Part shown: one piece after another, positions 7,507 to 13,333 of the stretch | Position numbering within the stretch: the stretch's first letter is position 1 | Layout: every line of letters starts with the position of its first letter | IMG/VR virus record: IMGVR_UViG_2909309443_000008 | DNA: 13,333 nt | From: a virus | Lineage: Duplodnaviria > Heunggongvirae > Uroviricota > Caudoviricetes | Strand: one strand, 5' to 3' | The notes under the pieces: model-generated | Told to the model about the DNA's origin: nothing | What the model saw: only the letters and a program-made list of their open reading frames with translations | Database searches by the model: none | Translations under genes and position numbers: made by a program

Positions 7507-7959
7507 AACCCCACCTCGCAGACAAAGCGGGTGTAAATTGAGGGAATACAACGTATCGCAAAAAAGCAGAAACGTAACAGACTCGGAGTCAGTGAATAAC
7601 TCAGGTATTGAGTTATCAGCTAATATCGAGACTCAAAAAATGGAAAAACCAGCTCGACGGCGGGTTTAAGCTGTGTGACGAAGTAACCACTCTTAACAGC
7701 ATAACCAATTTTTTACGTACGTAAACCACTGAATGATATTTATGAGAATGCTACCGAGTGTTCAAAACACCACCACAAATATATAAGAAAACCTCAACAA
7801 ATAACCAATAAATAATTTCCGGCGTTATTTTTAGTTGATTTAAATTAAACCACCGAATTATAGAACCCCCATAAATAACAGCCATTAATATAAATTAGCT
7901 AATAGGTTTATTTTTGTTCAAATAAGAGCCATAAATAGGTTTCGATAGAAAAAGTTCAG

Positions 7960-8094
7960 ATAAAAATAGAGATCTACTTCACAAATTAAATGAGAAACTA
8001 AAACTTACATCTTGAAATAATCACATTGATTAGATGAATATTTATCGCGCAGTGACATCATTTTTTAATAATAGTTCAAAAAAAAGGGCTCACG
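7960..8094 (+). promoter_or_regulatory. Putative nmpC promoter region with OmpR-box-like repeat
   Basis: AT-rich leader. The motif ACTTACATCTTGAAATAATCACATTG at 8003-8028 resembles the TTTACATTTTGAAACATCTA-type OmpR sites of ompC/ompF as recalled. Confidence 0.3.
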
Positions 8095-9177
8095 ATGAAA
8101 AAATTAACAGTGGCAATTTCTGCTGTAGCTGCATCAGTACTGATGACGATGTCTGCTCAGGCAGCTGAAATTTATAATAAAGACAGTAACAAGCTGGATC
8201 TGTACGGGAAAGTTAATGCCAAGCACTACTTTTCCTCTAACGATGCAGATGATGGTGATACTACTTATGCCCGTCTTGGCTTCAAAGGTGAAACCCAAAT
8301 CAACGATCAACTGACTGGTTTCGGTCAGTGGGAATATGAATTCAAAGGCAACCGCGCTGAATCTCAAGGTTCCTCCAAAGACAAAACCCGTCTTGCATTT
8401 GCAGGCCTGAAATTCGGTGACTACGGCTCAATCGATTACGGCCGTAACTACGGTGTAGCATACGACATCGGTGCGTGGACTGACGTTCTGCCAGAATTCG
8501 GTGGCGATACCTGGACCCAAACAGATGTGTTCATGACTGGTCGCACCACTGGTGTTGCAACCTATCGTAACAACGACTTCTTTGGTCTGGTCGATGGCCT
8601 GAACTTTGCTGCTCAGTATCAGGGTAAAAATGACCGCACTGACGTAACTGAAGCCAATGGTGATGGTTTCGGTTTCTCCACTACTTATGAGTATGAAGGA
8701 TTCGGCGTGGGTGCAACCTATGCTAAATCAGATCGCACTGACGGTCAGGTCGCCTATGGTAAGAGCAAATTCAATGCCTCCGGCAAAAATGCGGAAGTAT
8801 GGGCTGCAGGCCTGAAATATGATGCGAACAATATCTATCTGGCTACCACATATTCTGAAACTCAGAATATGACCGTTTTTGGTAATAACCATATTGCAAA
8901 CAAAGCACAAAACTTTGAAGCAGTAGCACAATATCAGTTTGACTTCGGTCTGCGACCATCTGTTGCTTACCTTCAGTCAAAAGGTAAAGACCTTGGTGTT
9001 CATGGTGACCGAGACTTAGTCAAGTATGTCGATGTCGGTGCTACTTACTACTTTAATAAAAACATGTCCACTTTTGTTGATTACAAAATCAACTTAATTG
9101 ACGATAGTAAGTTTACCAAAACAGCTGGTATTGATACCGACGACATCGTCGCTGTAGGTCTGGTGTATCAGTTCTAA
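8095..9177 (+). CDS. nmpC: General diffusion porin, OmpC/OmpF family (phage-borne NmpC/Lc-type), intact
   Basis: 360-aa ORF with signal peptide [30 protein letters not shown]..., porin hallmarks (…GFGQWEYEF…, C-terminal …VAVGLVYQF). It is uninterrupted here. Confidence 0.95.
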
Positions 9178-9345
9178 TCTGATTACGAAAAAGATATGTT
9201 GCGGGAGGCTTTGCCTCCCCAACATATAAGTGGCTCCCTCAAGCCACTTCCTTTAGAAGCACAACCTTGCTTCTAACTATATAAACCTTCTGTTATATAT
9301 TACCCTTTATTTTTGGGGGCGTCTCAACGCCCCATTTTTAATAAT
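9178..9345 (+). ncRNA. ipeX: nmpC 3' UTR; candidate IpeX-type sRNA region
   Basis: ~165-nt untranslated segment between the nmpC stop and a strong intrinsic terminator. In DLP12 the IpeX sRNA is reported to derive from the nmpC 3' region (recalled from the literature, not seen in sequence). Confidence 0.35.
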
Positions 9346-9366
9346 TTTTAGTAAACAATTGGCATA
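9180..9366 (-). promoter_or_regulatory. Candidate late promoter PR' / Q-utilisation / tR' region immediately downstream of Q
   Basis: By position, the late promoter belongs just downstream of Q. On the minus strand there is a TTGAGA...TAATAT pair (spacer ~19) followed by successive hairpins and a GGGAGGC-aaa-GCCTCCC stem (9203-9219) with CTTTTT after it, resembling a short terminated leader. Confidence 0.3.
9316..9345 (+). terminator. Rho-independent terminator downstream of nmpC
   Basis: GC stem GGGGCG-tctcaa-CGCCCC (9316-9333) followed by ATTTTTAATAATTTTT. Confidence 0.6.
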
Positions 9367-9750
9367 TTAATTAGAGTTATTAACAACGATATCCATCTCT
9401 AACCGGATATCTAATGCCATTAACATCCCTTCAATTATGCCCTCAGCCTTCTGTAACCTTTTCCCGATATAACCATCAGAGCAGCAATGCTTACCTGCCA
9501 GTGACATGAATGTCATACCGACTACATAATAATCTACTAATAAATCGTGCAAATCGCTGTTGTTCTTTTTCAGACGGGCCATGCACCCGCAAATGATCAT
9601 CGCGTCATCGTCACAACATTGCGGGCGAGATTTTACTTTTGAAGTAATTAATCCCTTAAAACCGGCGGCAATGGACGACCAGGTCACATCTTCATGATTA
9701 TTAGCCGCCCACGCTCCCCAACGCTCAAGAACCATCTGAATATCACGCAT
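9367..9750 (-). CDS. quuD: Late-gene antiterminator Q (QuuD-type)
   Basis: ATG at 9750 with a GGAG RBS. Translation [24 protein letters not shown]...[16 protein letters not shown]... has a Cys-rich zinc-binding region. The ORF-track start at 9765 is a TTG and is rejected. Confidence 0.88.
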
Positions 9751-9835
9751 CAACTTACTCCACAAAAATCAGACCAGAACGCCAATTACAAGCAAAAATC
9801 AATAAAACAGTATTAGTTGATTGTTATCTCTGACT

Positions 9836-9973
9836 TCATACTCCTGCTCCTGTCAGGGTTTTGGCGTAATTCCTCAGTATTCGGTAATCGGTCAAAACAG
9901 AACTGGGGAAACGATATAAGCGCAGGCGCATCCAGCGGTGGCGAAGAAGTTCTGCCATATTAAACTCAAACAT
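9836..9973 (-). CDS. ylcG: Small basic ORF (45 aa) translationally coupled to rusA; YlcG-like
   Basis: ATG at 9973 overlaps the rusA stop by 1 nt (TGATG). Translation [45 protein letters not shown]. The size matches the small ylcG ORF adjacent to rusA in K-12 DLP12 as recalled. Confidence 0.45.
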   Translation of the reverse strand: MFEFNMAELLRHRWMRLRLYRFPSSVLTDYRILRNYAKTLTGAGV

Positions 9974-10335
9974 CATTCATTCCCCATTTCGGTGATGGTC
10001 AGTTCCAGCCTCCCACCTTTGGTAACAGGCATCTTCACAACGCGGTAATCAACGACCTGAGCATCATCCAGCCAGAAACCTGCTTTAGTGAGTGCGTCAA
10101 AAGCGGCTTTTTGCAGATTATCCAGGTCACGGCGACGGCGATCCGGCATGTGGCACTCAATGCGGATTTTCACAGGGATAGCCAGGCCGATATCCAGCAT
10201 TGCGTTTTTAATGATTCTGGCGACGTTATCGCGGTATGCCTGCCCCTCTGCGCTGACGTGCGTGCGCCCGCGATTATGGCGGTAATAGCGATTATTGCTC
10301 GGAGGCCAGGGTAATGTGATGCTGTAGGTATTCAC
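9973..10335 (-). CDS. rusA: Holliday-junction resolvase RusA
   Basis: 120-aa [49 protein letters not shown]...[30 protein letters not shown]... matches RusA as recalled. Confidence 0.95.
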
Positions 10336-10390
10336 GCCTTAATAATCCCCTCTTTCAGCCACATAACCTGTGTTTTCGCCATACCTTCCA
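10336..10390 (-). pseudogene. ybcO: 3' remnant of ybcO (DUF1364) upstream of rusA, truncated at a deletion junction
   Basis: The frame ending at the TGA that overlaps the rusA start encodes ...[19 protein letters not shown], matching the YbcO C-terminus as recalled. Similarity is lost upstream of ~10390 and the frame has no start. Confidence 0.5.
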
Positions 10391-10404
10391 ACTGAGGTGT
10401 AAAA

Positions 10405-10683
10405 ATGTTCAGAATCATTTTGCCTAACACCTGGTACGTCGACCACCACGGCACTCCCTGCAAAATCCTGCGTTCTACCCACAACAAAGTTCACTACATC
10501 CGAAAAGGCAGAACATGTATCGCCAGCATGTTCCGCTTTAATCATGACTTTGAACCTGTGAATAAAGCTGATGCAGATCGGATAGCAGAAGAGATCGAAA
10601 CGGCAGAACACATTAAGAAGTTACGTGACATGCGTTCAAAAAGCAGAGGTAACCATGGAATCATACAGCCTCACACTCGATGA
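10405..10683 (+). CDS. Hypothetical phage protein (92 aa) upstream of xis/int
   Basis: ATG at 10405 with a GAGGTG RBS 5 nt upstream. Co-oriented with xis and int, and overlaps the Xis-like start. I recognise no family. Confidence 0.45.
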   Translation: MFRIILPNTWYVDHHGTPCKILRSTHNKVHYIRKGRTCIASMFRFNHDFEPVNKADADRIAEEIETAEHIKKLRDMRSKSRGNHGIIQPHTR

Positions 10684-11026
10684 GGCCTGTCAGTTTCTTA
10701 AGATATCCAGACCAACCGCCACCAACTGGATACGAACAGGCCGCCTACAGGCAACACGTAAAGATCCAACCAAGCCAAAATCTCCTTACCTCACAACACG
10801 GCAAGCCTGCATTGCGGCGCTTCAGTCTCCGCTGCATACTGTCCAGGTGAGCGCGGGTGATGGCATAACAGAGGAAAGAAAATGTCACTCTTCCGCAGAA
10901 ATGAAATATGGTATGCCTCGTATTCGCTCCCGGGCGGGAAACGAATTAAGGAATCTCTTGGCACAAAGGACAAGCGGCAAGCTCAGGAGTTGCACGACAA
11001 GCGAAAAGCAGAACTCTGGCGAGTAG
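10655..11026 (+). CDS. xisD: Excisionase-like (Xis) HTH protein, unusually extended over the int start; possibly degenerate
   Basis: ATG at 10655 with a GAGG RBS. Translation [32 protein letters not shown]... is Xis/AlpA-like. The frame runs on 145 nt past the int start to a stop at 11026. Confidence 0.5.
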
Positions 11027-12045
11027 AAAAGCTAGGGGATTTACCTGATGTCACTTTTGAAGAGGCCTGCCTAAGATGGCTTGAGGAAAAAGCTGATAAA
11101 AAATCTCTCGATTCAGATAAAAGCCGGATTGAGTTCTGGCTTGAACATTTTGAGGGTATAAGGCTTAAAGATATCTCGGAGGCAAAGATTTACTCTGCTG
11201 TAAGCAGAATGCATAACAGAAAGACGAAAGAAATATGGAAACAGAAAGTTCAGGCCGCCATCAGGAAAGGTAAAGAACCGCCTGTTTATGAACCAAAGCC
11301 AGTATCAACTCAGACAAAGGCAAAGCATCTTGCCATGATAAAGGCCATTCTCCGTGCTGCAGAACGCGACTGGAAGTGGCTGGAAAAAGCGCCTGTCATC
11401 AAGATACCAGCGGTCAGAAACAAGCGAGTCAGATGGCTGGAAAAGGAGGAAGCAAAACGCCTTATTGATGAGTGCCCCGAACCACTGAAATCTGTCGTCA
11501 AGTTTGCGCTGGCAACTGGTCTGAGAAAGTCGAACATCATAAATCTGGAATGGCAACAAATCGACATGCAGCGACGAGTTGCCTGGGTGAATCCAGAAGA
11601 GAGCAAATCAAACCGCGCCATTGGTGTGGCGCTGAACGATACCGCCTGTAAAGTGTTGCGTGATCAAATAGGCAAGCATCACAAATGGGTGTTTGTACAT
11701 ACCAAGGCGGCTAAGCGAGCAGATGGAACATCAACGCCTGCGGTCAGGAAGATGCGCATCGACAGCAAGACATCATGGCTATCAGCTTGTCGTCGTGCAG
11801 GAATTGAAGATTTCCGTTTCCATGACCTCAGACACACCTGGGCAAGCTGGCTGATTCAGTCAGGCGTCCCATTATCAGTGCTTCAGGAAATGGGCGGATG
11901 GGAGTCCATAGAAATGGTTCGTAGGTATGCTCACCTTGCGCCTAATCATTTGACAGAGCATGCGAGGAAAATAGACGACATTTTTGGTGATAATGTCCCA
12001 AATATGTCCCACTCTGGAATTATGGAGGATATAAAGAAGGCGTAA
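10882..12045 (+). CDS. intD: Tyrosine site-specific integrase (lambda Int family)
   Basis: 387-aa ORF with a GAGGA RBS. C-terminal catalytic motifs ...[14 protein letters not shown]... and ...MVRRYAHL (R-H-R-Y). Convergent with, and 15 bp from, the 3' end of a tRNA gene. Confidence 0.95.
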
Positions 12046-12060
12046 CTGATTGAATTGTAA

Positions 12061-12137
12061 TGGCGCGCCCTGCAGGATTCGAACCTGCGGCCCACGACTT
12101 AGAAGGTCGTTGCTCTATCCAACTGAGCTAAGGGCGC
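12061..12137 (-). tRNA. argU: tRNA-Arg (anticodon UCU)
   Basis: Minus-strand 77-nt sequence GCGCCCTTAGCTCAGTTGGATAGAGCAACGACCTTCTAAGTCGTGGGCCGCAGGTTCGAATCCTGCAGGGCGCGCCA folds as a cloverleaf: anticodon stem ACGAC/GTCGT, loop CT-TCT-AA, T-loop GGTTCGAATCC, 3' CCA. Confidence 0.95.
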
Positions 12138-12379
12138 GTTGATACCGCAATGCGGTGTAATCGCGTGAATTATACGGTCAACCCTTGCTGAGTCAATGGC
12201 TTTTGATCTGGTTGCTGAACAAGTGAACGACCGCGTCTGATTTTCTGATTTATTTCGCTATAGTGGCAAACAAACGCACACCGCTGCGCGTCTGAATCAA
12301 GAAAACCCGTATTTTCATGTATCAAAGTACAATTTACCGCCCTAACGGAAAATTGTCCGCTCCTATGAGACTGGTAACT

Positions 12380-13012
12380 ATGAAACCAACGTCGGTGATC
12401 ATTATGGATACTCATCCTATCATCAGAATGTCTATTGAAGTTCTGTTGCAAAAAAACAGTGAATTGCAGATTGTCCTGAAAACGGATGATTACCGCATAA
12501 CCATCGATTATCTCCGAACCCGTCCTGTTGATTTAATCATTATGGATATAGACTTACCCGGAACAGACGGTTTTACCTTCCTGAAAAGGATCAAACAAAT
12601 CCAGAGCACAGTGAAAGTGTTATTTTTATCATCGAAATCAGAATGCTTTTATGCTGGCAGAGCGATACAAGCTGGTGCTAACGGTTTTGTCAGTAAATGC
12701 AATGATCAGAATGATATTTTTCATGCCGTTCAGATGATCCTCTCCGGATACACGTTTTTTCCTAGCGAAACGCTTAACTATATAAAAAGCAATAAATGTA
12801 GTACGAATAGTTCAACGATCACTGTGCTATCTAATCGTGAAGTGACCATATTACGTTATCTGGTTAGCGGATTATCTAATAAAGAAATTGCCGATAAGTT
12901 ATTACTTAGCAATAAAACAGTTAGTGCGCATAAATCTAATATTTATGGCAAGCTAGGTTTGCATTCAATTGTAGAGCTTATCGACTACGCCAAATTATAC
13001 GAATTAATATAA
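12380..13012 (+). CDS. fimZ: LuxR/FixJ-family response regulator FimZ
   Basis: Receiver domain (…VIIMDTHPIIRMSIEVLL…DLIIMDIDLPGTDGF…) plus C-terminal LuxR-type HTH (…LSNREVTILRYLVSGLSNKEIADKLLLSNKTVSAHKSNIYGKLGL…). Canonical start taken as the ATG at 12380 (MKPTSVII); in-frame upstream ATGs at 12317 and 12365 lack an RBS. Confidence 0.88.
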   Translation: MKPTSVIIMDTHPIIRMSIEVLLQKNSELQIVLKTDDYRITIDYLRTRPVDLIIMDIDLPGTDGFTFLKRIKQIQSTVKVLFLSSKSECFYAGRAIQAGANGFVSKCNDQNDIFHAVQMILSGYTFFPSETLNYIKSNKCSTNSSTITVLSNREVTILRYLVSGLSNKEIADKLLLSNKTVSAHKSNIYGKLGLHSIVELIDYAKLYELI

Positions 13013-13024
13013 TATTAATTATAA

Positions 13025-13333
13025 GGTAGTGACTCCAACTTACTGATAGTGTTTTATGTTCAGATAATGCCCGATGACCTTGTCATGCAGCTCCACCGAT
13101 TTTGAGAACGACAGTGACTTCCGTCCCAGCCTTGCCAGATGTTGTCTCAGATTCAGATTATGTCGCTCAATGCGCTGAGTGTAACGCTTGCTGATAACGT
13201 GCAGCTTTCCCTTCAGGCATGATTCATACAGCGGCCAGCCATCCGTCATCCATACCACGACCTCAAAGGCCGACAGCAGGCTCAGAAGACGCGCCAGTGT
13301 GGCCAGAGTGCGTTCACCGAAAACGTGCGCCAC
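13025..13333 (-). mobile_element. IS1: IS1 insertion sequence, right copy (partial, continues beyond the window), inverted relative to the left copy
   Basis: Terminal repeat GGTAGTGACTCCAACTTACTGAT at 13025-13047, 12 bp after the fimZ stop, followed by the insB 3' end on the minus strand. Confidence 0.95.
13040..13333 (-). CDS. insB: IS1 InsB, C-terminal part (5' end outside the window)
   Basis: Translation ...[96 protein letters not shown]. It differs from the left-copy InsB at several residues, so the two copies are different IS1 isoforms. Confidence 0.9.

Follow-up and report, generated by a model that had tools for sequence, protein, structure and literature searches.

The stretch of DNA analyzed here, the whole 13,333 nucleotides of which we call the window, carries the following features (positions are counted from its first letter).

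1-713: IS1, at the left end of the window
Right of IS1, in this order: appY, tail-fibre fragments, nohD, then ylcI and iss/bor
Between iss/bor and the porin gene, minus strand: the lysis cassette rzpD-rrrD-essD
8095-9177, plus strand: porin gene (nmpC/ompC-like, 360 aa), intact
9367-9765, minus strand: quuD, a Q-type antiterminator and the last gene of the retained rusA-ylcG-quuD block (Pfam Phage_antitermQ, E 4e-53; RefSeq quuD)
9836-9976, minus strand: ylcG (PHROG 2705, E 2e-20; RefSeq YlcG family)
9973-10335, minus strand: rusA, Holliday-junction resolvase, intact, GTG start (Pfam RusA, E 2e-22, residues 9-114 of 120 aa)
10332-10390, minus strand: 3' remnant of ybcO (DUF1364), identical to the K-12 ybcO C-terminus at 56/59 nt and 16/19 aa
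10339-10545, minus strand: chimeric ORF that spans the junction described below, RefSeq "hypothetical protein" WP_236920177.1; it reads DUF4222 in antisense and continues, out of frame, into the ybcO stub
10394-10399, plus strand: Shine-Dalgarno sequence of DUF4222 (GAGGTG), 6-11 nt before the ATG and 4 nt inside the right arm; read from the sequence and identical in relatives
10405-10683, plus strand: DUF4222 gene, full length, 92 aa, first retained gene of the leftward (pL) operon (Pfam DUF4222, E 2e-19; PHROG 285, E 8e-38)
10655-11026, plus strand: xis (excisionase), full length, 123 aa, overlapping the start of int (PHROG 2907, residues 1-116 of 117, E 6e-46; Pfam HTH_17, E 1e-8)
10882-12045, plus strand: intD, tyrosine integrase, intact, 387 aa (Pfam Phage_integrase, E 6e-47)
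12061-12137, minus strand: argU, tRNA-Arg(UCU), the DLP12 attachment site (ARAGORN; Rfam tRNA, 72 bits)
Right of argU: fimZ, then an IS1 variant at 13025-13333

Judged from its sequence, the window represents a lambdoid cryptic prophage of the DLP12 family that has integrated at argU. The argU gene is adjacent to and convergent with intD, which is the attachment-site arrangement of the DLP12 family, and it was the sole match in an Rfam scan of the whole window. According to the RefSeq annotation of an identical locus and to BLAST, the late genes are ordered rusA-ylcG-quuD-porin-essD-rrrD-rzpD-bor...nohD...appY as in K-12, with the window oriented in reverse of the K-12 DLP12 map. This late region is colinear with that of K-12 at 91-99% identity, and intD with its flanks is 99.55% identical to K-12 at the nucleotide level over 10787-13024 (99.76% over 10787-12045). 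The rusA locus was 100% identical to WP_001099705.1 loci. The prophage is defective, in that the window lacks a repressor, N, O, P and a complete virion gene set; the virion genes annotated at the identical RefSeq locus are terminase and tail-fibre fragments only.

Some features of the window lie away from the rusA-int region. The left IS1 sits between ompT, which is itself outside the window, and appY; the right-end IS1 variant is diverged (90-94% identity), inverted and located just beyond fimZ, and the two copies flank the entire prophage remnant plus argU and fimZ. Another deletion junction of this prophage was noticed at about 4347-4561, where a terminase (aaaD-like) fragment abuts the middle of a tail-fibre gene; it measures about 0.2 kb in the window vs. 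4.3 kb in REL606 and is common to the strains TUM9803 and AR_0085. The porin gene is intact in the window and broken by IS5 in K-12, by IS1 in REL606 and by ISVsa5 in AR_0085 and 2017-03-3CC, its inactivation by IS elements being a matter of recurrent, independent events.

The start codons of rusA and of the divergent DUF4222 ORF are separated by exactly 69 bp (10336-10404), the distance given in the initial annotation, and DUF4222 has a ribosome-binding site of its own, as was also stated there. The same annotation had claimed a deletion junction near rusA, and the alignments confirmed it: two arms that are distant from each other in relatives are cleanly joined here. The interval 10336-10404, as we read its sequence, very probably holds a deletion scar in a DLP12-family prophage.

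The breakpoint was placed by base-by-base and BLAST alignments at 10387-10390, four bases (TCCA) that are common to both arms. Homology of the left arm (ybcO-rusA) stops at 10390; the right arm matches the DNA that precedes DUF4222 in relatives from 10387 onward. Arm ends were taken from BLAST against six references (K-12, REL606, 2017-03-3CC, AR_0085, TUM9803 and phage 2G7b), and three-way alignments across the junction were made with 2017-03-3CC, K-12 and TUM9803. Written with a slash at the break, the left parental sequence is ...CCATACCTTCCA/GCGCGC and the right one ...CAACATCGTCCA/ACTGAGG; TCCA was found at both parental sites in TUM9803 and in 2017-03-3CC. Every base beside 10387-10390 could be assigned to one arm, with zero inserted bases. 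The join precedes the DUF4222 start codon by 15-18 bp and spares the Shine-Dalgarno sequence of this gene. Elsewhere the arms are separated by 3.3-12.2 kb (AR_0085, TUM9803, REL606 and 2G7b). An alignment to the ybcO-rusA and xisD-exoD regions of K-12, which had been put forward as a way to locate the breakpoint, placed its left side but not its right side, because K-12 lacks 10391-10786. The int-side homology of K-12 resumes only at window position 10787; DUF4222 and the first 44 xis codons are missing there, and what remains of xisD in K-12 abuts an exo fragment.

The frame that ends at the start of rusA had been described as ybcO-like, and comparison with the K-12 YbcO C-terminus (LEGMARTQVIWLKEGVIKA, followed by the stop) bears this out at the identities listed above. 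The remnant comprises 18 complete sense codons together with the stop, preceded by 2 nt of a 19th codon, and the earlier figure of about 17 remaining codons agrees with a count from an internal ATG. Its TGA stop overlaps the GTG start of rusA (GTGA). The initial annotation had implied that the deletion at this site truncated ybcO, and this implication does not stand. In 2G7b, TUM9803 and AR_0085, alignments upstream of rusA showed that ybcO homology begins only about 90 nt before the stop, with a ninX/DUF2591 module directly upstream of the stub, so that a stub of about 90 nt was already there; the deletion shortened it by about 30 nt, to 59 nt. This comparison identifies the stub as a mosaic boundary that the parental phage type already had, separate from the deletion at 10387-10390.

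The content of the missing DNA can be seen in 2G7b (Nesevirus, NC_049954; relatives ev243 and PhiR68_2), a functional and complete phage with full head and tail genes. From 10387 through int, 2G7b is 99.9% identical to the window, and in the rusA-Q-porin-lysis-bor region 97.8%; it carries the same ybcO stub upstream of rusA, and its ompT gene adjoins int, matching the ompT end of chromosomal DLP12 loci. It differs from the window in having 25 genes between rusA and DUF4222. The DNA between the two breakpoints amounts to 12.2 kb in 2G7b, and the distance from the rusA start to the int start is about 12.7 kb. The 25 annotated genes of the interval include the following.

DUF2591/ninX, dam, ninB, ren, P, O
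cII, cro, cI, N, sieB-like, ral
kil, gam, bet, exo, DUF1317, DksA-like gene

The initial annotation had stated that everything between xis and the nin region is missing, and indeed all 25 annotated genes of this interval are absent from the window. When every ORF of at least 40 aa in the 2G7b interval (n = 66) was compared with the window using tblastn, no early gene was found; the sole weak match, of 21 aa (E 1e-4), lies at the junction. The statement that the element can neither replicate nor regulate itself also holds, the repressor, the antiterminator N and the replication genes all being missing from the window, as are the recombination genes. Kept intact in the window are rusA, quuD, the lysis cassette, the porin gene, bor/iss, appY, xis and int. 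The prophage remnant is locked and promoter-poor; it cannot be induced, replicate or kill its host.

Alleles at argU vary in how far the start codons of rusA and int lie apart and in the DNA that fills this interval.

K-12: about 7.4 kb; full ybcO, ninE, ybcN, ylcH, ybcM, ybcL, ybcK, ylcJ, emrE, renD::IS3, peaD, exoD'
REL606: about 7.2 kb; full ybcO to ren, P', dam', hypothetical gene, traR
TUM9803: about 5.4 kb; 4820 bp between the breakpoints (ninX to P', then bet' to traR)
AR_0085: about 3.9 kb; 3331 bp between the breakpoints (ninX to P', then dam' to traR)
2017-03-3CC: about 1.05 kb; ybcO, truncated ninE, traR fragment
14EC033: about 0.97 kb; zapA-like fragment, traR
Window: 546 bp; 69 bp between rusA and DUF4222

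Among the alleles compared here, that of the window has been reduced furthest, and at least five junction architectures shorten the rusA-int distance at argU (that of the window, 2017-03-3CC, 14EC033, the TUM9803/AR_0085 series and K-12/B). K-12 DLP12 shares with the window the integration site, int, the lysis cassette, nohD and appY, as well as a rusA-ylcG-quuD block that is 98.9% identical in nucleotides, and both are defective and lack immunity and replication genes. They differ in the spacing of rusA and intD (7.4 kb vs. 546 bp between start codons) and in the porin gene, which is disrupted by IS5 in K-12 only of the two. As the alignments read, K-12 DLP12 and the window are independent decay products, neither of which is derivable from the other. 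Between REL606 and the window, 35 substitutions are clustered in quuD-ylcG-rusA-ybcO (9547-10375) vs. 5 in 2.6 kb on the int side, which indicates that the rusA module of E. coli B is a different mosaic allele, with a full-length ybcO. REL606 was rejected as a parent of the window on account of these 35 differences and its full-length ybcO. As a direct parent 2017-03-3CC, whose gap is about 0.5 kb longer (BLAST span +507 bp), was rejected as well, since it has another junction (ninE'/traR') and 19 left-arm mismatches.

The nearest relatives found were TUM9803 and AR_0085, which show 9 and 6 differences from the window, respectively, over about 11.5-12 kb. TUM9803 is colinear with the window over 1051-10390 and AR_0085 over 1538-10390, the junction near 4347 included. 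Both have near-identical flanks, the same structural-gene deletion, the ybcO stub and the same rusA and int alleles as the window, and they differ from it in keeping the 4820 and 3331 bp, respectively, that the window has lost. Neither strain has cI, cro, N or O any longer, and P has been cut down to a C-terminal fragment; their early-region junctions are bet'/P' in TUM9803 and dam'/P' in AR_0085. Because these two are nearly identical to the window in the flanks yet already defective, parsimony suggests that the ancestor of the window was likely defective already.

The P-gene endpoints of the TUM9803 and AR_0085 deletions (about 12788) lie within 2 nt of each other (CTGCTGTA/ACGATG vs. CTGCTGTACC/CCCGTAC). 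Their near coincidence may reflect either a secondary deletion anchored at an older junction or a breakpoint hotspot in P.

We propose that an illegitimate, microhomology-mediated deletion at the 4-bp TCCA occurred inside a DLP12-family prophage at argU. It would have fused the ybcO 3' stub, which lies upstream of rusA-ylcG-quuD (the rightward pR operon), to the point 15-18 bp before DUF4222, and the rusA block and DUF4222-xis-int (the leftward pL operon) would have ended up head to head with nothing between them. Compared with a functional phage, the 12.2-kb early region would thereby be gone, both early promoters included, although the last event probably took just 3.3-4.8 kb from an early region that was already gutted. 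Its losses would be ninX, ninE, dam, ninB, ren and the P fragment, followed by (bet', exo, DUF1317) dam/dam', a hypothetical gene and a TraR/DksA-like gene. The data directly give the junction coordinates, the gene content, the population distribution and the pre-existing stub; the order of the deletions, and slippage or end joining as the mechanism, we infer.

The exact junction was found in 29 of 5426 complete E. coli genomes, several of the records being labelled O6:H16, in a search for 100% identity over 200 bp centred on the junction. Five further genomes have two other short-gap architectures (the 2017-03-3CC type and the 14EC033 type). Strains such as TW10598 and B2C, which like FORC_031 have the junction, are ETEC challenge strains. 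In 99-3165, the one junction-bearing genome that was checked, the prophage has at most 4 SNPs relative to the window outside the IS1 copy. The sublineage that 99-3165 exemplifies has a different variant of IS1 at the left end, which carries 30 of the 34 differences, and its fimZ is truncated by IS5 instead. Resolved to the base, the junction cleanly marks one lineage and can be used in lineage typing and annotation. Of the cryptic prophages of E. coli, DLP12 is reported to be the most widespread, with 74% of 638 strains carrying it (PMC6379469). The scar is ordinary prophage erosion that would not surprise a specialist; it adds a data point on the erosion of lambdoid prophages, in which toxic and regulatory early genes would be lost in nested steps while late and integration genes survive.

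The new upstream context of rusA, to which attention had been drawn at the outset, is real as sequence, but a promoter-like site facing rusA was not found there. Our promoter and terminator scans consist of consensus matches only. They gave no sigma-70-like site facing rusA on the minus strand of 10336-12160 and none facing DUF4222, and no promoter was created at or near the junction. On the other side, the plus-strand porin gene is succeeded by a terminator-like hairpin (9316-9333), which makes read-through from that gene into DUF4222-xis-int unlikely. Going by these scans, rusA-ylcG-quuD and DUF4222-xis are most likely transcriptionally silent. The argU promoter (12196-12169, minus strand, 11/12 consensus positions) is co-oriented with rusA and now stands about 1.8 kb upstream of the rusA start codon. 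No canonical intrinsic terminator was seen directly downstream of argU (11900-12060, minus strand), and argU transcription may continue antisense into int. In K-12, rusA is quiescent and is activated by IS2 or IS10 insertions upstream (PMC1636454). These rus-1 and rus-2 alleles resemble the window in that the sequence upstream of rusA is rearranged; they differ in bringing in an outward promoter, whereas the consensus scan of the window shows none facing rusA.

How the join was made, and in how many steps, was weighed against several alternatives. At the junction, distant arms meet cleanly and the parental breakpoints share a few base pairs of identity, a pattern that fits illegitimate microhomology-mediated recombination and not an IS-mediated or site-specific event. 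A random join is expected to show microhomology of at least 4 bp with a probability of about 0.016 ((m+1)(1/4)^m(3/4)^2 summed for m of at least 4; our own calculation), and a match of just 4 bp says little about which mechanism was at work. We consider it highly improbable that an IS element or a site-specific recombinase (Int/Xis, or the YbcK serine recombinase of some DLP12 versions) made the deletion. Such an origin could be argued from the IS1 copies at both window ends, from the IS-interrupted porin genes of K-12, REL606 and AR_0085 and from the P endpoints of TUM9803 and AR_0085, which resemble nested, anchored deletions; yet base-by-base alignments revealed no IS end, inverted repeat, target duplication, att-like core or foreign sequence at the junction, the parental breakpoints share TCCA only, and ybcK is missing from TUM9803 and AR_0085. 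The IS sequences nearest to the junction are those at 1-713 and 13025-13333. An assembly artefact or the natural module boundary of a viable phage can practically be dismissed. An artefact is refuted by the 29 independent complete genomes in which the junction is 100% identical, and as for a module boundary, no phage record matching either arm has the arms adjacent, and the phages matched by both arms carry them more than 11 kb apart.

With illegitimate recombination as the preferred origin, the number of steps has to be considered. The initial annotation had the entire early region removed at this junction, which was probably not the case in one step, the nearest relatives being already without the cI-O-P core; on the comparison with them, the window junction is rather likely to be the last of several nested deletions. 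That an intact, inducible prophage lost about 12 kb in a single deletion is the less likely course, though one that deserves some weight: both breakpoints exist in functional 2G7b, 12.2 kb apart, the scar bears no trace of earlier junctions and would look identical after a single 12-kb event, and the lineage of the window could predate the loss of the immunity core in TUM9803 and AR_0085. Set against this are those same relatives, which differ from the window at 6-9 positions, share its structural-gene deletion and already lack cI, cro, N and O, and parsimony favours a final step of 3.3-4.8 kb. A different proposal is that the deletion was an adaptive rewiring that activates rusA-ylcG-quuD, through argU read-through or a promoter made at the junction, in the manner of the rus alleles. 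In its favour, rusA of K-12 is switched on by upstream changes (PMC1636454), the argU promoter points at rusA with no canonical terminator directly after argU, and at least four independent deletion alleles reduce the rusA-int distance. We regard it as very unlikely, for no promoter-like site was made at or near the junction, two weak terminator-like hairpins (11632-11615 and 11334-11319) lie en route from argU, and recurrent loss of toxic early genes accounts for the recurrence without rusA. Untranslated antisense int/xis RNA of about 1.7 kb would be a good substrate for Rho, and because of Rho-dependent termination on this RNA, argU read-through to rusA is very unlikely. Equally unlikely is a convergent, selected loss of the early region, in which argU read-through would supply low constitutive RusA and Q in this lineage and might, through Q, also switch the lysis cassette on to some extent. 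Should expression of rusA or Q in the new setting be demonstrated, the allele could be regarded as a natural counterpart of the laboratory rus alleles; there is no sign of such expression here.

The analysis corrects the annotation of the locus at three points, namely the chimeric "hypothetical protein", the excisionase miscalled an "HTH pseudogene" and the ybcO stub, which is a feature of the parental phage. The chimeric ORF gave zero Pfam or PHROG matches and is probably not a real gene. At the xis locus, RefSeq has just a 66-nt "helix-turn-helix pseudogene", where the ORF is really a full-length excisionase. The DUF4222 CDS is 279 nt, the same as in phage 2G7b and in REL606, and the calling of the chimeric ORF (WP_236920177.1) by PGAP had cut it to 216 nt.
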